From assembly GCA_000165345.1 (NCBI GenBank), contig CM000431.1, positions 32,001 through 96,000 of the forward strand: a stretch of 64,000 nt of DNA. The letters are read 5' to 3'. How positions within the stretch are numbered: position 1 is the stretch's first letter; each line of letters begins with the position of its first letter. The translations under genes and the position numbers were made by a program. The notes beneath the pieces were generated by a model, which had not been told where the DNA came from, did not search any database, and was given only the letters and a program-made list of their open reading frames with translations. This document shows, piece by piece, positions 7,128 through 54,267 of this stretch.

Positions 7128-7217
7128 TTTAGCAATATTTTTTGTTCAAGTTACTCATTTCTTATATATCTACTAATTAATTTTTTTTTTTAATATTTTT
7201 CCTTATACCGGTGTTAC

Positions 7218-7265
7218 GCATGTTTAATTTGATTAATATGCTAAATTCATTAATTGGCGCCAAAC
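7218..7265. promoter_or_regulatory. Putative promoter elements upstream of the Rrp36-like gene: GCATGT and palindromic E2F-like TTGGCGCCAAA
   Basis: gcatgt at 7218-7223 and ttggcgccaaa at 7255-7265, about 115-160 bp upstream of the ATG at 7380. Confidence 0.45.
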
Positions 7266-7379: not shown

Positions 7380-8180
7380 ATGGATTTTGAAGATATTCCT
7401 TTTGAGGAAATTATAAGAAAAGAAAAGATAGCTGAGTCATTCGAAAAAAGAAAAAGTGCAGAATCAGAAAAAAAAAATGCCAATGGATCCTACAAATCAT
7501 GCAAAGAATTTGAGAAAAATGATGAAATCGATCAAAGACTCAAAAAATATGGAAGAATTACTTCAAAGAACTCTCCAATGGAAGTATCATCTAGAAGACA
7601 AATTTTACCAGAAAAACTAGAAAATGAAAGAAACTATATCAGAAATAAACATGACAGCTCAAAAAAAGGCAATGATCCTAGATTTAATGACTCTTGTGGA
7701 AAGCTCAACACTGACTTATTCCATAAATCATATGACTTCTTAGATGACATGAGACAAAGAGAATTTAATCAGATCAAGAATACATTAGATTTATACAAAA
7801 TTATGACCAAGTCTAAAGAACTTGGAACATGGAATAAAGTTAAGAAATCATCAAAATTTAAAAACTCTGATGTAAATCATCTTACTCAAGACCAAATTGA
7901 CAATCTCAAACTTAAATATCAGAAACTTGTTTCTGAAAAAGATCATAGAAAAAATCTTTACCTTAAACAGCAAACCATATCGCAACATAGAAAGCAGGAA
8001 CAAACTAAAATTGAATCAGGAAAGAAGCCATTCTTTCTTAAACAAAAAGATATCAATTTATCTATTCAACATGATAAATATAAAAATCTTAATAAAAAAC
8101 AAATATCAATGCTTGAACAAAAAATTAATAGAAAAAATGTCTCCAAGTTTAAACCACCAACTTCTCTTAGAAAAATATAA
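7380..8180 (+). CDS. RRP36: rRNA biogenesis protein Rrp36-like (DUF947 family), 266 aa
   Basis: RFNDSCGKLNTDLFHKSYDFLDDMRQREFNQIKNTL matches yeast Rrp36 [39 protein letters not shown]. The C-terminal KPFFLKQKDINLSIQHDKYKNLNKKQISMLEQKINRKN matches the KPF(Y/F)LKKSE...K(F/Y)..LKK...KFL..RRKKN signature. Basic, Lys-rich nucleolar-type composition. Confidence 0.75.
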   Translation: MDFEDIPFEEIIRKEKIAESFEKRKSAESEKKNANGSYKSCKEFEKNDEIDQRLKKYGRITSKNSPMEVSSRRQILPEKLENERNYIRNKHDSSKKGNDPRFNDSCGKLNTDLFHKSYDFLDDMRQREFNQIKNTLDLYKIMTKSKELGTWNKVKKSSKFKNSDVNHLTQDQIDNLKLKYQKLVSEKDHRKNLYLKQQTISQHRKQEQTKIESGKKPFFLKQKDINLSIQHDKYKNLNKKQISMLEQKINRKNVSKFKPPTSLRKI

Positions 8181-9834: not shown

Positions 9835-12137
9835 TTAGCATTTTCCATCTTTAGAATCCTTACATTCAAATCCTCCAGGTGTATTTATACAACACTGTGA
9901 TTTACCACAATAATTACCCACTTTACATTCATCTATATCACGGCATGTGAATCCATCTCCTGTATAGCCTTCTGAACATACGCACTCAAATTTACTTAAA
10001 TCATGCGTTGTTTCAAAGATTGAATGTACGTAACATTCCGCATTTTTGGAACATTTGCTACAGACTTCATTCTTAAAGTTTTTCTTGACTTTTTTTGGTA
10101 TCAAAAACATTGGATTATTGAATCTATACTCATCTCTAATCCATTTAGAAATGTGAGATGCTTCATTGCTTAAATCTGATTTATTCATCATAATAGAATG
10201 CATTAAGACGGGTTCTGATGAAATATATTCAATCTCACGATACATATTTGCATCTTTTGATAATGAAATGAAGTATATATCAATATCTTTCTTCAAGCTA
10301 ACGATTCCTGGGCATGTCTTCACAGAAGTACAACCATTAAATCCTGCAGTGATGTATACTATCTTTCTTCTCTTTAATAGCACCTTATTATGATAGCCTC
10401 TTTGATTTGAATGAGAATCAGTACCATTTTGTTGTGCAATAACATTTAATACTCTTTCTGAGTCTTGCTGTGCAACCATACTTAACAATCTATCAACCCT
10501 CATATTATTGTCAGAGCCTTGTAATGTTGATATGAAGCTCGTATGCCCTTGGGTTTTGTTTTGTTCATTAATTGGAACTGACAAAATTTCAGTATTTATT
10601 CCACTCTCGACCAAATTTCTATAAATTACATTTGCAGACAAATTAATTTCTTTCATTTGATCAATATTTGGTACTTTAGACAGATCCATTACTAACGAAA
10701 CTGCATATTTTGGTGGTTCGCTTGTGGTTGTTGTAGTATTTGGATACTCAGTTGTAGTGGTTGTTATATCTGGAATTGTTGTAGTTGTGGTAGTTGTTGG
10801 ATATCCTGTTGTGGATGTGGTTGTTGGATAACCTGTTGTAGAAGTGGTTGTTGGTTGTCCCGTTGTAGAAGTGGTTGTTGGATAACCTGTTGTAGAAGTG
10901 GTTGTTGGATAACCTGTTGTAGAAGTGGTTGTTGGATAACCTGTTGTAGAAGTGGTTGTTGGATATCCTGTTGTAGAAGTAGTTGTTGGATGTTCTGTTG
11001 TAGAAGTGGTTGTTACATTTGGAGCTTTAGTTGTAGTAGTTGTTGGGCTTCCAGTTGTGGTGGCTATTGGACTTCTAGTTGTAGATGTGGTTGTTACATT
11101 TGGAGCTTTAGTTGTAGTAGTTGTTGGGTTTCCAGTTGTAGAAGTGGTTGTTGCATTTGGAGCTTTAGTTGTGGTAGTTGTTGGATTTCCAGTTGTAGAA
11201 GTGGTTGTTGGACTTCTAGTTGTGGATGTGGTAGTGTTTGGACTCCCTGTTGTGGTAGTTGTTGGATATCCTGTTGTGGATGTAGTTGTTACAACTGTAG
11301 TCGTTGTGGTAGTGATTGGAATATTTGGGTATTCTGTTGTTGTGTTGTTGGGAAAGGATAAACTGGATACTCGGTTGTTGTTGTTGTTGGGTATACTGGA
11401 TATTCTGTTGTTGTTGTGGTGGGGTATACTGGATATTCTGTTGTTGTCGTTGTTGGGAAAGGATAAACTGGATACTCTGTTGTTGTTGTGGTTGGGTATA
11501 CTGGATATTCTGTTGTTGTCGTTGTTGGGAAAGGATAAACTGGATACTCTGTTGTTGTTGTGGTTGGGAAAGGATAAACTGGATACTCTGTCGTAGTAGT
11601 TGTTGGAATTGGGTATATTGGATATTCTGTTGTTGTTGTTGTTGGGACTGGGTAAACTGGGTATCCTGTTGTTGTTGATGTCAAATTTAAAATATAGTCA
11701 TATTTGTGGCTATTCCATCCCATTTGGTAAACATTTTTTTGATGATGATTGTAATGATAATGATGGTTTTCCTTTGGTATATAATTAAAATGACTATTAG
11801 TATAAGACCTTTCATCATCGGTTGTATCTATATATTTAGGAGTATATGTATTATAATAAGTGTTATAATATCTATAATTATGGTGGCTTTGATGGTGGTT
11901 GTGTTTATACTTATGACTCTGAGATTCTGCCACCTTTCTATTTAAATTTGACGTACCTTCATCTGTCAAAATTGCATTATTTTCATCATAATCATGTTGA
12001 TTTTCTGGTGAAACCCATGTATCTTGTTCATCAATATCAGAAGCAAAAATAATTGTTAAATTTATCAATAGGAGACCTATTGAGAGAACAAATTTTTTAT
12101 TTAAAACTCCAAACATTAGGAACCGTAAAAAAATCAA
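9835..12137 (-). CDS. Secreted mucin-like glycoprotein. It has a signal peptide, a His/Tyr/Asn-rich segment, a Thr-rich tandem-repeat array and a C-terminal Cys-rich domain with a calcium-binding EGF module. The reading frame is broken once inside the repeat array, near 11345
   Basis: The N-terminus MIFLRFLMFGVLNKKFVLSIGLLLINLTIIFA is a hydrophobic signal. It is followed by HKYKHNHHQSHHNYRYYNTYYNTYTPKY. Next come about 13 copies of TTTTTEYPVYP(FP), then about 15 copies of TTTSTTGYP (27-nt unit). The repeat frame runs without stops into the 9835..10689 ORF (...NTTTTTSEPPKYAVSLVMDLSK...). The C-terminal domain has 16 Cys, including CRDIDECKVGNYC...C.NTPGGFEC, a cbEGF signature. The frame break: the last TEYP unit reads CCAACAACACAACAGAATACCC where sister units read CCAACAACGACAACAACAGAATATCC, a ~4-nt deficit. 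Confidence 0.7.
10700..11690. repeat. Coding tandem repeats (27-nt and 39-nt units of ACN-rich Thr codons) inside the mucin gene
   Basis: On the + strand this is ggatatcctgttgtagaagtggttgtt reiterated, then ggatactc(g/t)gttgttgttg... units. The near-perfect periodicity creates the spurious + strand ORFs 10855..11361, 10952..11596 and 11316..11678. Confidence 0.85.
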
Positions 12138-44893: not shown

Positions 44894-47800
44894 ATGTTTG
44901 CTAATCAGGATGATTTTTGGACTTCAGATGAGGAGGAGGAAGAAGAGGAGGGGGTAGAAGAGGAGGGGGTAGAAGAGGAGGAGGTAGAAGGAGAAGAAGA
45001 TAAGGATGAAGAAAAGAATGATCAAAAAAATGATTTGGATATGGTTGAAGAAAAAGTTTCCAGAATCAGTCTAAAAGAGGGTAAGGAAGGAGAGGAGAAT
45101 GGTGAGGAAGAGGAAAGAAAGAAAAAGAAGGGATTTATCAGGAAGAAATGGAGTATAGAAGATGAGCGAGATGTTTCTGATTTCAGGGAAATTATAGGCT
45201 ATGAGCCTTGTAAGAAAGAAGATTTGGATGATTCAGAAGATTTGGAGAATGTGGTATTAAAATATCCCTATGAATTGGATGATTTTCAGAAAAGAGCAGT
45301 AATTAATATACATAATGGAGACCATGTTTTAGTTGCAGCTCACACTTCAGCAGGAAAAACAGCAGTAGCAGAATATGCAATAGAGTTAGCTAATAAGAAT
45401 GGAAGGAAAGCAATATATACATCTCCTATTAAAGCTTTAAGTAGTCAAAAATATCGAGAATTTTTGAATAGATTTAGAGAATATCCTGCACATTCATCAT
45501 TTACTCAAAGAAACAGGATTGGAATAATTACAGGAGATGTGAGTATTAATCCTGATGCACAATGTGTAATAATGACAACTGAGATTTTGAGGACAATGCT
45601 ATATAGAAATGATCCTTGTATTGAACAAATTCAGACGGTAATATTTGATGAGGTTCATTATATTAATGATTTGGAGAGAGGCGTTGTTTGGGAAGAGGTA
45701 TTGATATTATTGGATCCAAAAGTTCAACTGGTTTTGTTATCGGCAACAATTCCAAATTATATAGAGTTTGCTAATTGGATTGGAAGGATTAAACAAAATA
45801 CTGTTTATTGCATTCGAACTTTACATAGGCCTGTTCCTTTGAAGCATTATCTTTACATTTACGAGAAATGTTTCCAAATAATGGATGAGAATAATAAGTT
45901 CAATATAAATGGATACAAGGAAATGCTGGATTTTATTAAAACTTCAAAATCTAAGAAGAGTATTAGTAGCTTAAAAAGCAAGGTCAGTAAGCTCAGTTCG
46001 TCAATATCTAAGGCGAACTCATCTCAAGAAATTCAGTCTCAGGAAGACCCAAATCAAGAGGATCCCAGTCAAGAAGACCCAAATCAAGAGGATCCCAGTC
46101 AAGAAGATCCAACCCAGGAAGTTCAGTCCCAAGAAGAACCAATCCAAGAAGACCAATCCCAAGAAACTCAATCCCAAGAAACTCAATCCCAAGAAATCCA
46201 ATCCCAAGAAGCGAAAGTTGAAGACAACAATATTGCAATGCTTAGGATCTCAGCAATTAACAAGCAAATCTCATCTTCTGCTGGAGCAAAAGGAGGATCT
46301 GGGGGAATTCTTTCTAGTGCAGAAACCAAATTCAAGACTGAAGTTTATAGATTACAAGTGTTCTTAAAGCTCTTGGAGAAAAATGATCAATTACCTGTCA
46401 TACTATTTGGATTTTCTAGGAGAAAAGTGGAACAATTAGCAACCAATTTACCAAATCTCAACTTTTTATACAATCATAATGAAAAAAGTAATATTATTAC
46501 ATTTATTAAAGAATCCACAAGTAAATTAAATGAATTGGATCAAAAAATTCCTCAATTATTACAATGTAAAGAATTAGCTTTAAGAGGAATAGGAATTCAT
46601 CATAGTGGAATGCTTCCAATTATCAAAGAAATGACTGAGATCTTATTTACTAGAGGATTAATCAAAGTATTATTTGCAACTGAGACAATATCTATGGGAA
46701 TTAATTGTCCAGCTAGATCTATTGTATTTACTAGTATTAAAAAATATGATGGACGAAAAAATAGAATACTTCTTTCTTCTGAATATACACAAATGTCAGG
46801 AAGAGCTGGAAGAAGAGGTATTGATACTTTTGGTAATGTATTTATATTTAATTCATCACATGAAACAATACCAGAATGTATTGATATTGTAAAGATGATG
46901 CTTAATACTTATTTACCAGTACAAAGTAAATTCAGATTAACATATCAGATGATACTTCAACTTTCTTGTAGACATTCACTTAAAATTGAAGATATGATGA
47001 CTAAATCATTTAAAGAAATGTTCAGATCAATTAATCTTCCAATATTTCATCGAAATTTGAATAGAAAGCTTAAAAGACATCAAATCATACTTTCAAAATT
47101 ACATTCTATATTAGAATCATATAATAGTAATTTGGTTATTTCTAATTATAATCAAAGAAATACAAATCAAAAAGATGAATTTCAATTTGAATCTGATTCT
47201 GAATCTTTATTAAATATTATTAATGGTTTAATTTCAACTATTGAAACTTCAAATTTAATTTCTGGTCAATTATTTCAAAAACTATGTAATTCATCAATTA
47301 ATAAGAATATAATTTCTCAGAAGATTCTTAATCCTGGAAGATTAATACTATTCAATTCTTTTTCATTGACTGGTAAATCTTTACCAATGTTTGCAAATAT
47401 TTTGGAATATAATCCAACATCAACACTTTCTTCTATTATTGTTTATTCACAAGAATTTATTGATTTTCAATTTTCATCAAATAATTATCTTTCAAAAAAT
47501 ATTATGGATGGTAATGATAATAATAATAATAATAATAATAATAAAGGAATTGGTGATTCTAATAATGATATTCAATTTTATGATGTTGTTGAAGAAAGTA
47601 TTCAAAATTATCAAAATTCTAATAAGAATCGACAAATCAGTGTAGTACAAAACTTGATAGATCTTGATAGATCTAAAAAGAATAATAATCAAAGAAATTC
47701 TTCTTCATCGTATTCTTCAAAAAACTCTACAACAATCAATTTGATTCATCATTCAACATTTAATTCTCAGAAATTATTAATTTCAACATCTTTATATAAT

Positions 47801-49213
47801 AATACAAATATTAATGAAATCAATCCATTATTTAAAAACATTAATAATTATTATATTTTTCAAAATGTTCCATTAGAACTTTTTATGTTCATTTTTGATT
47901 TTAATGCTTCAGCTACAAATAATCAAACAAATCTTCTTAAAAGTATTAATTTTAAAGATATTTCCATATTACATAACATTGCAATTTTACTTAAAAACTC
48001 TGTTCAAGACTTTTTATCAAATCAGAATAGTATAAATAATATGAATGGTAATTGTAATAATTCTTTAAAAAATAATAATTTAGGAAATTCTGGTATAAAT
48101 CCTAATATTGGTCCAAAACCAAAGAATAAGAACAATAAAAAAGGTATGAAGGTAAATCTTTTTGAATTCATTAGTCATCAAGAACAACAAAACCAACAAT
48201 TAAATACTAATCGTGGAAATATTACTGAATATTCTTCATCTTCATCTTCAAACATACCAGAAAACTGGCCAAAATTATTACCCATTTCCAAAACACTAAA
48301 ATCAATAGAAATTGAATATTATGAACTTTTACAAAGATATAATGATCTTTTCCCAGAATTTGTTAATAATCATATATTCAAAAATTGTTATTCATTTATT
48401 ATTGAAGAAAATAATAATCATAATGATAATAATGGTAATAATACTATGATTCAACTTATTGTTGAACTTAATAAATTGGATCATGAAATATCAATTTATA
48501 AACATTTCATAAATGATGAAAGTTTGGATGATTATCCAGAAATGAAACTTAAAATACAATTATTAATTGAAAAAGGATTCCTTAATGAAAATCTTACTAT
48601 TACAACTAAAGGTAGAATAGCATCAGAATTACTTACAAGTGATGAACTTACTTTAATAGAAATATTACTGAATGGTATGTTACATAAATTAAATAATATT
48701 CATGAAATTACGGCTATATTATCTTGCTTTGTATTTCCTGAAAAAATGGAATCATTATCAAATTCAAATACTAGTACAAATAATAATAATAATAATAATA
48801 ATATTCTTGGTATAGATAGACCTTCATTACCTTCTGTTGAACTTTTGAATGCTCATGATGAGCTTATTAATATTCATACAGATTATGAAAAAACTCATTA
48901 TAAACATCAAATAAATTTAGATACTGAACATTTTTGGTCTTTATGTAATGATAAATTTATGTTAATTGCTTATAAATGGTCAAATAAAGAATCACTTAAA
49001 GAGATTATGGAATTTGTACATAATTCTGAAATGAATTTACATGAAGGTACAATTGTTAGAACAATTTTAAGACTTGATGAACTTGTTAGAAAACTTATAA
49101 TAGCAGCAAAAATGATGGGAGATAAAATACTTGAAGAAAAATTATGTTTAATACATGAAAATATTGCCAGAGATATCATTTTTATGACTTCTCTTTACTT
49201 TAATTCCAACTAG
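44894..49213 (+). CDS. Ski2-like (Ski2/Mtr4 family) DExH-box RNA helicase with a C-terminal DSHCT domain, 1439 aa
   Basis: Motif I AHTSAGKT. TSPIKALSSQK. DEVHYINDLERGVVWEEV (DEVH box). LLSATIPN. Helicase C motifs (LFATETISMGINCPARSIVF, QMSGRAGRRGID). The C-terminus has the DSHCT pattern (HEGTIVRTILRLDELVRKLIIAAKMMGDKILEEKLCLIHENIARDIIFMTSLYF). An acidic N-terminus precedes the core. Confidence 0.85.
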   Translation: MFANQDDFWTSDEEEEEEEGVEEEGVEEEEVEGEEDKDEEKNDQKNDLDMVEEKVSRISLKEGKEGEENGEEEERKKKKGFIRKKWSIEDERDVSDFREIIGYEPCKKEDLDDSEDLENVVLKYPYELDDFQKRAVINIHNGDHVLVAAHTSAGKTAVAEYAIELANKNGRKAIYTSPIKALSSQKYREFLNRFREYPAHSSFTQRNRIGIITGDVSINPDAQCVIMTTEILRTMLYRNDPCIEQIQTVIFDEVHYINDLERGVVWEEVLILLDPKVQLVLLSATIPNYIEFANWIGRIKQNTVYCIRTLHRPVPLKHYLYIYEKCFQIMDENNKFNINGYKEMLDFIKTSKSKKSISSLKSKVSKLSSSISKANSSQEIQSQEDPNQEDPSQEDPNQEDPSQEDPTQEVQSQEEPIQEDQSQETQSQETQSQEIQSQEAKVEDNNIAMLRISAINKQISSSAGAKGGSGGILSSAETKFKTEVYRLQVFLKLLEKNDQLPVILFGFSRRKVEQLATNLPNLNFLYNHNEKSNIITFIKESTSKLNELDQKIPQLLQCKELALRGIGIHHSGMLPIIKEMTEILFTRGLIKVLFATETISMGINCPARSIVFTSIKKYDGRKNRILLSSEYTQMSGRAGRRGIDTFGNVFIFNSSHETIPECIDIVKMMLNTYLPVQSKFRLTYQMILQLSCRHSLKIEDMMTKSFKEMFRSINLPIFHRNLNRKLKRHQIILSKLHSILESYNSNLVISNYNQRNTNQKDEFQFESDSESLLNIINGLISTIETSNLISGQLFQKLCNSSINKNIISQKILNPGRLILFNSFSLTGKSLPMFANILEYNPTSTLSSIIVYSQEFIDFQFSSNNYLSKNIMDGNDNNNNNNNNKGIGDSNNDIQFYDVVEESIQNYQNSNKNRQISVVQNLIDLDRSKKNNNQRNSSSSYSSKNSTTINLIHHSTFNSQKLLISTSLYNNTNINEINPLFKNINNYYIFQNVPLELFMFIFDFNASATNNQTNLLKSINFKDISILHNIAILLKNSVQDFLSNQNSINNMNGNCNNSLKNNNLGNSGINPNIGPKPKNKNNKKGMKVNLFEFISHQEQQNQQLNTNRGNITEYSSSSSSNIPENWPKLLPISKTLKSIEIEYYELLQRYNDLFPEFVNNHIFKNCYSFIIEENNNHNDNNGNNTMIQLIVELNKLDHEISIYKHFINDESLDDYPEMKLKIQLLIEKGFLNENLTITTKGRIASELLTSDELTLIEILLNGMLHKLNNIHEITAILSCFVFPEKMESLSNSNTSTNNNNNNNNILGIDRPSLPSVELLNAHDELINIHTDYEKTHYKHQINLDTEHFWSLCNDKFMLIAYKWSNKESLKEIMEFVHNSEMNLHEGTIVRTILRLDELVRKLIIAAKMMGDKILEEKLCLIHENIARDIIFMTSLYFNSN
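46021..46212 (+). repeat. In-frame 30-nt/15-nt tandem repeat encoding (S/N/T)QEDP and SQE(T/I)Q peptide repeats, located between the two RecA domains of the helicase
   Basis: caagaggatcccagtcaagaagacccaaat occurs twice, followed by degenerate aatcccaagaaactc units. Protein: QEDPNQEDPSQEDPNQEDPSQEDPTQEVQSQEEPIQEDQSQETQSQETQSQEIQSQE. It produces spurious antisense ORFs 46008..46238 and 46019..46207. Confidence 0.85.
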
Positions 49214-49422
49214 AAAGTAAATAAGAAAAATAAAAAAATTCATGAAAAAAACAATACAAAATCACGATTTGATATAGGAAAAAAAATTTATTTTAGTTAG
49301 AAAAGGTTTAAGTTAAGTTAAGTTTTTGTAAGGTTTTATGTTTGATAGTTTTTAGTTTTGGGTTTTGGGGTTAAATTTGTCTTGGGATTTTGGGTTTTTT
49401 GGTTTAAAATAAAGAATTAAGG

Positions 49423-50145
49423 TTTTGCCTTTAAGAGTTGGCTTGAGGCTTGAGGCTTTCTGGCCTTTAAGAGTTGACTTAGGGTTTCAGGCTTTCTGAC
49501 CTTTAAGAGTTGGCTTAGGGTTTCAGGCTTTCTAGCCTCCAAGGGTGGTTGGCTTGAGGTTTCAGAATTTTTGGCCTTTAAGAGTTGACTTGGGGTTTCA
49601 GGCTTTCTGACCTTTAAGAGTTGGCTTAGGGTTTCAGGCTTTCAGGCTTTTTGGCCTTTAAGAGTTGGCTTAGGGTTTCAGGCTTTCAGGCTTTCTGGCC
49701 TTTAAGAGTTGGCTTGGGATTTCAGGCTTTCTGACCTTTAAGAGTTGACTTAGGGTTTCAGGCTTTCTGACCTTTAAGAGTTGGCTTAGGGTTTCAGGCT
49801 TTCTAGCCTCCAAGGGTGGTTGGCTTGAGGTTTCAGAATTTTTGGCCTTTAAGGGTTGGCTTAGGGTTTCAGGCTTTTTTGCCTTTAAGAGTTGAATTGG
49901 GGTTTCAGGTTTTTGGCCTTTAAGAGTTGGCTCAGGGTTTCAGGCTTTCTGGCTTTCTGGCTTTCAGGCTTTTTGGCCTTTAAGAGTTGACTTGGGGTTT
50001 CAGGCTTTCTGACCTTTAAAAGTTGACTTAGAGTTTCAGGCTTTCTGACCTTTAAGAGTTGGCTTAGGGTTTCAGGCTTTCTGGCTTTCAGGCTTTCTGG
50101 CCTTTAAGAGTTGGCTTGGGATTTCAGGCTTTCTGGCTTTCTAGC
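49423..50145. repeat. Intergenic minisatellite: about 20 copies of a 36-bp unit (cctttaagagttggcttagggtttcaggctttctga, with 43-bp variants). A higher-order period of ~270 bp is superimposed. The array is flanked by a 19-bp direct repeat TTAAAATAAAGAATTAAGG at 49404-49422 and 50146-50164
   Basis: The unit is read directly from the sequence. The segment ctagcctccaagggtggttggcttgaggtttcagaatttttggcc recurs at about 49531 and about 49801. The array is GC-richer than its surroundings. It is preceded at 49320-49400 by G/T-rich telomere-like sequence (agttttgggttttggggttaaatttgtcttgggattttgggttttttgg), and each unit contains TTAGGGTTT. Confidence 0.85.
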
Positions 50146-50350
50146 TTAAAATAAAGAATTAAGGTAAGGTTTTGACCTCCAAACGTCTTAGGGATTTAAG
50201 CTTCGGGTTTCACCTCGAGCCTCAACCCTTTAAGGTTTTTTTTTTTTTTTTTTGAAATTTAAAGTTAAATAAATACTTAATTATAATAACCTAATAGCCT
50301 TTCAATCATAATTAATATAACCAATTTTATTACTAATTTTAACAAAATAA

Positions 50351-50393
<43 letters not shown>

Positions 50394-50450
50394 TTTTAAT
50401 ATGATCACCAATAATATCAAGAAATTTATAATAAAAAAATTGACCAACTA

Positions 50451-52326
<1,876 letters not shown>

Positions 52327-52826
52327 NNNNNNNNNNNNNNNNNNNNNNNNNNNNNNNNNNNNNNNNNNNNNNNNNNNNNNNNNNNNNNNNNNNNNNNNNN
52401 NNNNNNNNNNNNNNNNNNNNNNNNNNNNNNNNNNNNNNNNNNNNNNNNNNNNNNNNNNNNNNNNNNNNNNNNNNNNNNNNNNNNNNNNNNNNNNNNNNNN
52501 NNNNNNNNNNNNNNNNNNNNNNNNNNNNNNNNNNNNNNNNNNNNNNNNNNNNNNNNNNNNNNNNNNNNNNNNNNNNNNNNNNNNNNNNNNNNNNNNNNNN
52601 NNNNNNNNNNNNNNNNNNNNNNNNNNNNNNNNNNNNNNNNNNNNNNNNNNNNNNNNNNNNNNNNNNNNNNNNNNNNNNNNNNNNNNNNNNNNNNNNNNNN
52701 NNNNNNNNNNNNNNNNNNNNNNNNNNNNNNNNNNNNNNNNNNNNNNNNNNNNNNNNNNNNNNNNNNNNNNNNNNNNNNNNNNNNNNNNNNNNNNNNNNNN
52801 NNNNNNNNNNNNNNNNNNNNNNNNNN
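52327..52826. other. Assembly gap (500 N)
   Basis: An uninterrupted run of n of conventional scaffold-gap length. The true size is unknown. Confidence 0.99.
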
Positions 52827-54267
52827 CAAATGTATGATAGTATTTTTCAAAATATTCTTGTATTATATCATTAATATTATATTCTTGTAATATATTACCA
52901 AATAATTTATTTTTGCTCTGATTTAATATATTTTCCAAAGCAGAAAAATTATAATTCATTATTTTTGATTTAATATTCTCCAAATCAATAAAACTATAAT
53001 TAGAAGTTTGTGTATCATTTACTAATACATTTGTTCTCATATCATACCAACTACAATTTATAGGAAACCATGGTAAAATATTCAAGTTACCTTGTGATTC
53101 AATATAATTTTCTATATAAACTTGTCTCTTAAACCATCTATTTTCGAATATCTTAAAAAACTTTTTAGGAAATATTCTTGTAATGAATTCATATATTTCT
53201 GTATCATATTGAGATAGTATCGAAATTATTTGAGCATATAATATACAATTATCAACATTTGCATGCTCAAGATTATTAATAAATCCCTCATTTATAATTC
53301 TTGCCAAATATATTAATAAAACTCTGCTACTTTTAATCTTATTATTGATTAATTGATATTGACTCTCAGTTGAATCTAATAGTAATGATCTTAAAATAAT
53401 TCCACTCAAAAAGTCAACTTTTGGGATTGATGTTATCGATAGGTCGAACAAAAGATCTAAATAATTTCCACATAAGATTTCAATTGAAACATTTTTTAGT
53501 ACCTTATCTGTCAAATATCTTTGAAAATGTAAGATATTTGAATAAATCTTAAGTATTAAGGTGGTTAATAGTATTGATGAATTCTCATTATATTTTTCTT
53601 GTTTTATAGAAGATGAAATATCAAATACCTTATTTTGATCAAATAATTGTGTAAGATACATATTCTTATGTTGAAATAAAGATTTCCATAATTTGCTAAG
53701 TGCTTTTTCATCATCTTCTTCCGATAAACATCTTCTTAAAGAAATACTTTGAGAAATTTTATCATTACTTTGATTTTTCATTAATTCCAATATTGCTTCT
53801 AAAATTTGACATCTCAATTGAATACCAAGTAAATTAGAACTTGCTATATTTATCATAACTCCAAATATATTTGGAAACTCTCTTGAAAGTAATCCTCTGT
53901 AATAATTACACTTGGAAACTTGAAAAATAAAATTTGATGTAATTGTTAGACACTCCTCTATCTCAAGTCTTAACTCATTCATTAAGAACCTTGGGTCTTC
54001 TTTTTTCATTCTAAATTCTGATATTTCTAGTCTTTTATTTGCAACATTCAAGAACTCATTCACCAATTTAACAGAAAGTAAACTTTTTCTGTTACTGTAA
54101 GTTCCAGAATTTTCTTCTATTTCGTTCATATAATCACTCAAAAAGTTCAATAATACTACATCTTTCATTGAAATTAATACTTCTTTACTCAATTTTCTTC
54201 TATTTTCTGATTCACTCTTTAACTTTCTTATTTTTGAAGCAACCAAACTTAAATTTAACTCTTTCAT
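52827..54267 (-). CDS. Hypothetical protein, N-terminal at least 480 aa; the 3' part is lost in the gap
   Basis: ATG at 54267. The open frame runs to the gap edge at 52827. Helical, Leu/Ile/Asn-rich sequence with no catalytic motif recognised. The track ORF 52318..54267 includes translated Ns. Confidence 0.55.

Follow-up and report, generated by a model that had tools for sequence, protein, structure and literature searches.

An intergenic tandem array between two convergent genes of Cryptosporidium parvum and its counterparts in related species

Examination of a 64-kb stretch of the Cryptosporidium parvum genome (contig CM000431.1 of assembly GCA_000165345.1, positions 32,001 to 96,000 of the forward strand; hereafter the window, with coordinates counted from its first nucleotide) drew our attention to a tandem array of short, GC-rich units situated between two protein-coding genes. 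Upstream of the array is the gene for a SKI2-type SFII RNA helicase, and downstream of it, on the opposite strand, is the 3' part of a gene for an Asn-rich protein of unknown function. The convergent arrangement of these genes had been proposed from the nucleotide sequence in the original prediction, and the open reading frames (ORFs) bear it out, with the helicase on the plus strand and the Asn-rich gene on the minus strand. The spacer, measured from the helicase stop codon (49211-49213) to the end of the Asn-rich ORF (50451), is 1.23 kb long. The helicase gene begins approximately 74.8 kb from the start of the 1.10-Mb C. parvum records and the array lies about 79-80 kb in; the locus is probably on chromosome 3, a placement that we made from the C. 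hominis record LN877949.1 and the size of the chromosome. Coordinates of the features at the locus are collected in Table 1.

Organisation and composition of the array

When the sequence was split at each occurrence of CTTTAAGRGTTG, we obtained 16 head-to-tail units of a 36-bp motif, extending from 49429 to 50145. Tandem Repeats Finder (TRF), too, placed 14.1 copies of a 36-bp period at 49427-49953, with a score of 562 and with related rows that reach 50142, so the tandem array of a 36-bp unit described at the outset was recovered by both approaches. Further, overlapping rows show periods of 72, 111 and 131, the TRF scores range from 562 to 714, and short period-8 runs are seen at 49932-49972 and 50066-50101. 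Listed in order, the units measure 36, 36, 75, 36, 44, 44, 36, 36, 75, 36, 35, 60, 36, 36, 52 and ~44 nt. The units of 44, 52 and 60 nt are explained by one, two and three additional copies, respectively, of the 8-nt motif GGCTTTCN; these replace the 43-bp units with an additional 7-nt ggctttc that had previously been described.

A higher-order period had been placed at approximately 270 bp, and we were able to refine this value to 271 bp. The two 75-nt units begin at 49501 and 49772, exactly 271 bp apart, and both of them hold the variant CCTCCAAGGGTGGTTGGCTTGAGGTTTCAGAATTTTT that was quoted in the original prediction; 49427-49650 and 49698-49921 match at 92% of positions. The array as a whole comprises about 2.6 copies of the 271-bp higher-order repeat, with the 36-bp units nested inside it and a 7-8-nt substructure nested inside the units. 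The best-fitting short periods are AGGCTTT and AGGCTTTT, and the substructure can be written as AGGCTTT(T/C).

The array differs markedly from its surroundings in composition. Its GC content is approximately 45%, compared with 20-25% in the flanks and 31% over the window, and its plus strand is strongly G- and T-rich, with a GC skew of +0.25 to +0.6 and an AT skew of -0.3 to -0.5.

On each side of the array is the 19-mer TTAAAATAAAGAATTAAGG, and here the earlier description of two identical flanking copies was accurate. Exactly two copies of the 19-mer are present in the 64 kb, one at 49404 and the other at 50146 (742 bp apart), where approximately 0.02 matches would be expected by chance in the window even with 2 mismatches permitted. 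The likeness of the two junctions extends past the 19-mer, to TTTTG(A)CCT.

We asked whether the array could encode a product. The longest ORF within it is 47 aa, in keeping with the previous statement that none of 60 aa or longer is present. No reading frame could run on through units of 35, 44 and 52 bp, and the C. parvum and C. hominis arrays (compared below) differ by frame-breaking changes; the array is non-coding and is not constrained by frame. A search of 49000-50700 against Rfam at a permissive threshold returned, as its best match, a chance-level long non-coding RNA (E = 0.56; 20.8 bits, where the threshold is 55 bits). The poly-T tract at the end of the right flank resembles an RNA polymerase III terminator, and for this reason we also ran ARAGORN, which called no tRNA over the whole window. 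Predicted folds were no more stable than those of shuffled sequences, either for one higher-order copy as DNA (z = +0.99) or for the conserved right flank as RNA (z = +0.04). Neither a known family nor a stable fold, the usual marks of a structured non-coding RNA gene, was found in these searches.

Table 1. Features of the helicase/Asn-rich gene spacer and the adjoining genes (window coordinates)
Feature	Position	Strand	Remarks
SKI2-type SFII RNA helicase gene (DEAD, Helicase_C, DSHCT)	44894..49213	+	ORF; stop codon 49211-49213
27-bp indel AAGGTTTAAGTTAAGTTAAGTTTTTGT	49303..49329	+	AAGGTTT direct repeat at bounds; in window, L002 and L007; missing from L001 and L003
Degenerate G/T-rich leader, decayed left edge of repeat	49340..49403	+	49377-49401 is 76-80% identical to unit core
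Left 19-mer TTAAAATAAAGAATTAAGG	49404..49422	+	Includes AATAAA; inside 98-bp unit in C. hominis
Higher-order repeat, copy 1	49429..49699	+	271 bp; subunits 36, 36, 75, 36, 44, 44
Higher-order repeat, copy 2	49700..49977	+	278 bp; subunits 36, 36, 75, 36, 35, 60; 92% identity at 271-bp spacing
Higher-order repeat, partial copy 3	49978..50145	+	Subunits 36, 36, 52, ~44; has GGCTTTCN runs
Right 19-mer	50146..50164	+	Followed by TAAGG duplication, then TTTTGACCT, paralleling TTTTGCCTT after left copy
Right flank, degenerate proto-unit GACCTCCAAACGTCTTAGGGATTTAAGCTTCGGGTTTCACC...	50165..50235	+	In all C. parvum and C. hominis copies
Poly-T tract, variable	50236..50253	+	18-19 in C. parvum, 24-25 in C. 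hominis
(TA)n microsatellite, variable	50359..50391		14-16 repeats in C. parvum, 9-18 in C. hominis
Asn-rich protein gene of unknown function, 3' part	50451..52850	-	ORF; 500-N gap inside

Variation among species and among C. parvum assemblies

The order and orientation of the helicase and Asn-rich genes are conserved in all of the species that we compared, and the length of the convergent spacer is stepwise greater across the genus: 43, 110 and 236 bp, then 0.5-1.2 kb in C. parvum and C. hominis. There is no array in C. felis (L011; 43-bp spacer, 7209-7252), in C. ryanae (L012; 43-bp spacer, 7491-7534), in chipmunk genotype I (L006; 110 bp) or in C. meleagridis (L005; 236 bp). The C. meleagridis spacer still shares approximately the first 110 nt that follow the helicase stop codon, together with a short right-flank piece, GGATTTAAGCTT.

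Four C. hominis assemblies (L004, L008, L009 and L010) hold a related array at the same position as in C. parvum. The spacer is 783-800 bp long in the first three, and in all four the array contains four subunits and has a 98-bp period (3.2 copies), with the 19-mers 195 bp apart. The 98-bp unit, AAGAATTAAGG-TTTTGGCCTTTAAGGGTTGGCTTAGGGTTTCAGGGCTTTTGG-TTTGTGATAAAAAACTGGGATTTCGGATTTTTTGG-CTTAAAATA, holds the 19-mer plus one 36/37-bp subunit; the 19-mer, present in two copies, is internal to the tandem unit. One substitution and a one-base shift are all that separate the C. hominis subunit from the C. parvum unit. Because this near-identical subunit is common to the two species and occupies the same position, the array predates the split between them, and the suggestion of a recent insertion, for which the orthologous locus had been proposed as a test, did not survive the finding that C. 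hominis carries the array at the same site. We conclude that the array arose after the split from C. meleagridis and already existed in the ancestor that C. parvum and C. hominis have in common, and that each of them has reorganised it independently.

One of the C. hominis assemblies, L010 (GCA_001593475.1, contig JIBN01000128.1), is represented by a short-read contig that stops in the poly-T tract, 586 bp past the helicase stop. Because simple repeats in the spacer break such assemblies, array lengths in short-read assemblies should be viewed with caution. The lengths of the poly-T and (TA)n tracts vary among the assemblies of both species.

Within C. parvum we distinguish an IOWA-type set, consisting of the window and assemblies L001, L002 and L003, from assembly L007 (GCA_048859185.1). 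All four IOWA-type copies have the same 16 units, with the same lengths and an identical array sequence, in a spacer of 1207-1234 bp; their differences in the spacer are limited to the 27-bp indel, one T of the poly-T tract and one TA. The indel is a second slippage-type polymorphism in the spacer, and it divides the C. parvum assemblies into two groups.

Assembly L007 has only 3 mismatches to the window over 7.5 kb of flank, and its spacer is 489 bp long and lacks the array. At the array site it reads ...GGGTTTTTTGG-C-TTAAAATAAAGAATTAAGG-TAAGGTTTTGACCTCC..., that is, a single 19-mer and both unique flanks with zero units between them. A C precedes the 19-mer in L007, as it does in C. hominis and in the right copy of C. 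parvum, and a T precedes it in the left copy of the IOWA-type assemblies; the parental allele of L007 therefore differed from that of the window and had, as in C. hominis, a C before the 19-mer. From these sequences, the array-less allele is best read as a secondary deletion between direct repeats, and such a deletion between the 19-mers would explain an allele with one 19-mer and no array. L007 resembles known deletions between short direct repeats in that one 19-mer was kept and both unique flanks are intact; it departs from them in that the event is reconstructed from assemblies only, and in that the retained 19-mer is preceded by C and not by the IOWA-type T.

Origin and possible function of the array

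The sequences that border the array provide the first indication of how it arose. The leader aligns locally to the whole unit with 24/33 positions matching, a score equalled in 20/1000 shuffles, and its first part is conserved in C. hominis. On the other side, GCTTCGGGTTTCA of the right flank matches GCTTAGGGTTTCA of the unit (score equalled in 1/1000 shuffles), and C. meleagridis shares GGATTTAAGCTT of that flank, a match that was also equalled in 1/1000 shuffles. Several positions of the right-flank piece differ between C. parvum and C. hominis, and to judge from these differences the piece is not obviously constrained. Since both flanks consist of degenerate units, the array appears to be of local origin.

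A different origin was put forward in the original prediction, in which the array was taken to be a telomere- or subtelomere-derived repeat that had been relocated between housekeeping genes. The C. parvum telomere is (TTTAGG)n (PMC8848321, PMC11599830). Like interstitial telomeric sequences, the array has a G/T-rich strand and regularly spaced motifs that contain TTAGGG; TTAGGGTTT, which was said to be embedded in every unit, is present in 8 of the 16, and the others read TTGGGGTTT, TTGGGATTT, TTGAGGCTT, CTCAGGGTTT, TTAGAGTTT and similar. The unit also aligns to telomeric repeats better than its mononucleotide shuffles do, with the score for TTTAGG matched or exceeded in 6/1000 and that for the apicomplexan-type TTTAGGG in 0/500, and the best 7-mer fit, CTTTAGG, is the hexamer plus a C. 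However, interstitial telomeric sequences are made of tandem copies of the organism's own telomere repeat, and TTTAGG has 0 occurrences on either strand of the array, with no TTTAGG dimer anywhere in the 64-kb window. In a ranking of all k-mers over the array's first 300 nt, AGGCTTT reached 119, whereas TTTAGGG scored 58 (rank 8 of 2344) and TTTAGG scored 24 (rank 4 of 700). The better-than-shuffle alignment is a reflection of the G/T-rich 7-8-nt substructure; the resemblance to telomeres is loose, and a telomeric origin is not required to account for it. The 36-bp period with its AGGCTTT(T/C) substructure also sets the array apart from interstitial telomeric sequences, as do flanks that grade into degenerate units, of which only the right-flank proto-unit is common to C. 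meleagridis; these flanks speak for growth on the spot. The site is approximately 80 kb from the record end. A weak argument concerns the strand: the loci from chromosome-level records are not reversed, so that the G-rich strand lies on top close to the start of the record, which by standard telomere polarity would be the opposite of what the near telomere should present. We regard relocation of telomeric or subtelomeric DNA to this site as highly improbable.

The 19-mers raise the question of whether the array was instead brought in as the cargo of a mobile or inserted element, with the 19-mers as its target-site duplication. Exact 19-bp direct repeats do bound the array, and L007 offers an exact empty site with one 19-mer. 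A target-site duplication, though, should be host sequence lying outside the inserted repeat, and in C. hominis the 19-mer lies within the 98-bp tandem unit itself; the similarity of the junctions, moreover, continues beyond the 19-mer. As the array occupies one and the same site in C. hominis as in C. parvum, the empty site is a secondary loss. The L007 allele is thus not evidence of insertion, because the 19-mer is internal in C. hominis, the junction likeness is longer than the 19-mer, the flanks are degenerate units and the derived subunit is shared by the two species. Transposable elements are marked by terminal inverted repeats, long terminal repeats or a coding capacity, and we found none of these hallmarks: there were 0 inverted-repeat pairs in 49200-50300, and no ORF of 60 aa or more. 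Cryptosporidium genomes are reported, in the 2004 genome paper, to be devoid of transposable elements. Taken together with the lack of a further copy in the window and in the 12 loci that we fetched, these observations leave an inserted element as an extremely improbable source of the array. The suggestion that the 19-mers mark unequal-crossover boundaries is supported, as they lie inside the C. hominis unit and L007 has lost everything between the two copies.

No other copy of the unit was found in the remaining 63 kb of the window, where blastn-short queries with the C. parvum and C. hominis units returned only chance matches of 10-11 nt, or in the flanks of the 12 loci that we fetched. A degenerate 28-nt pattern of the unit had 0 matches in a metagenome collection, and a chimeric protein query assembled from every open frame of the array, intended to pick up spurious gene calls on other copies, had 0 database matches, which is a weak negative. 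Baptista et al. (PMC8744675) reported that read pile-ups were confined to the subtelomeric region of chromosome 1 and to inner tandem repeats of chromosomes 5, 7 and 8, a pattern that is compatible with a single correctly assembled copy at the present locus, although it does not prove it.

With a probability of roughly 80%, we consider the array to be a lineage-specific, rapidly evolving, non-coding minisatellite that has grown in place between the two convergent C. parvum genes. It consists of tandem units within the range of roughly 10-100 bp that is typical of minisatellites, and its organisation and copy number vary among individuals or close species, where the array-less C. parvum allele is that of one assembly. 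It has in common with minisatellites and variable-number tandem repeats (VNTRs), including the C. parvum/C. hominis markers ML1, ML2, TP14, MSB and cgd3_3850, its head-to-tail units of tens of bp, its nested periods, the degenerate edges around a homogenised core, the reorganisation between sister species and the presence or absence within a species. The Cryptosporidium typing markers differ from it in that many are coding and have amplicons of 150-550 bp, whereas the array is intergenic and measures approximately 720 bp. It is not among the published markers that we checked, and the chromosome-3 VNTR marker cgd3_3850 is a different locus. The sequence of the unit was found in no searchable paper, no paper was found on a chromosome-3 intergenic minisatellite, and the assembly accessions have no citation in the searchable literature.

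Slippage, unequal exchange and annealing are the mechanisms that we infer to lie behind the present state of the locus. The hierarchy, in which the 8-nt GGCTTTCN lies within a 36-bp unit and that unit within a repeat of 271 bp (C. parvum) or 98 bp (C. hominis), is the layered pattern that repeated replication slippage together with unequal exchange would be expected to produce. The two 19-mers are relics of an older, longer repeat unit and a recombination boundary, as opposed to target-site duplications. As direct repeats they also provide a substrate on which deletions can form, and single-strand annealing or slippage following a break within the array would be possible routes. The parasite is not known to possess canonical end-joining, and a deletion by direct-repeat annealing would fit this.

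Several points weigh against the interpretation of the array as a rapidly evolving minisatellite without a required function. The four IOWA-type copies are identical, and instability within that lineage is accordingly unsupported. Judged by the base that precedes its 19-mer, the L007 allele is not a simple crossover product of the IOWA-type allele. L007 is also a single assembly and the sole within-species variant, and could be the product of assembly collapse. The search for other copies covered the 64-kb window and 12 loci. Finally, that the array has no required function is deduced from absent signals and from its dispensability.

The possibility of a function should be considered on its own merits. 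The AATAAA of the 19-mer lies approximately 190 nt beyond the helicase stop codon, with G/T-rich sequence after it, and AAACCCTAA occurs eight times on the reverse strand of the array. The array might accordingly be a functional spacer element, acting as a poly(A) region that has been duplicated and/or as a pause site, GC-skewed and prone to R-loops, that would stop helicase read-through into the opposing gene, or else as a set of protein-binding sites provided by the eight copies of AAACCCTAA. The strongly positive GC skew of the strand in sense with the helicase, and a spacer that has grown stepwise in this lineage, are in line with such a role, of which 3'-end formation would be the most plausible version on sequence grounds. 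AATAAA is, however, common in AT-rich sequence, and the C. parvum and C. hominis arrays diverge sharply in sequence and organisation. One C. parvum assembly and four other species do without the array, and in two of these species the spacer is only 43 bp long, so that any such role is dispensable. We consider a functional spacer element to be unlikely.

A further reading, which appears to us very unlikely, would make the array a recently evolved, strand-asymmetric buffer between the convergent genes. Its duplicated AATAAA-plus-G/U-rich units, and a non-template strand rich in G, might promote 3'-end formation or R-loop-mediated pausing of helicase read-through, or the eight AAACCCTAA-like sites might recruit a Myb-type telomere-repeat-binding protein. 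If this were true, the presence/absence polymorphism would alter the expression of the flanking genes between isolates. A centromere was rejected as a candidate, since four other species and one of the C. parvum assemblies lack the array.

Adjoining genes and value of the locus

The 1439-aa helicase of the window is identical to the protein annotated in three chromosome-level C. parvum assemblies. Helicase length is 1437 or 1439 aa in C. parvum and 1451 or 1456 aa in C. hominis, and these differences are possibly located at 46039-46211, where coding 15/30-bp repeats encode QEDP(N/S/T)-type motifs. A GAG/GAA-rich acidic repeat is present in the same gene at 44926-44993. We entertained the GAG microsatellite of the helicase N-terminus as the ML1 typing marker, and dropped the idea, as the primer sequences that we tried had no match in the window. 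The Asn-rich gene is interrupted by a 500-N assembly gap (52327-52826). In gap-free C. parvum assemblies it encodes one protein of approximately 2980 aa (2981 aa in L002, 2987 aa in L007), and in other assemblies it is split into calls of 625 aa or 438 aa. Elsewhere in the window, large G/T-rich plus-strand tandem repeats with periods of 27, 39, 72 and 138 lie at 10722-11704. They are coding when read from the minus strand, where the product of the ORF at 11289-12137 has Thr-rich TTTTTEYPVYP(F)P repeats of mucin-like appearance, and they are unrelated to the intergenic array.

The locus provides an example of a compact apicomplexan genome, with a spacer of 43 bp at this position in distant species, that has gained approximately 1 kb of satellite DNA in a short evolutionary time. 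A second suggestion from the locus is that this genome is shaped by deletions that occur between short direct repeats. Three states are separated at the locus, namely the 98-bp organisation of C. hominis, the 16 units of most of the C. parvum assemblies compared, and the C. parvum allele with none. The presence/absence difference among C. parvum isolates, approximately 740 bp, should be easy to score by the polymerase chain reaction and may be useful for typing or as a lineage marker. For the basic biology of the parasite the array is of little consequence; as a marker of species and lineage it has some practical value.

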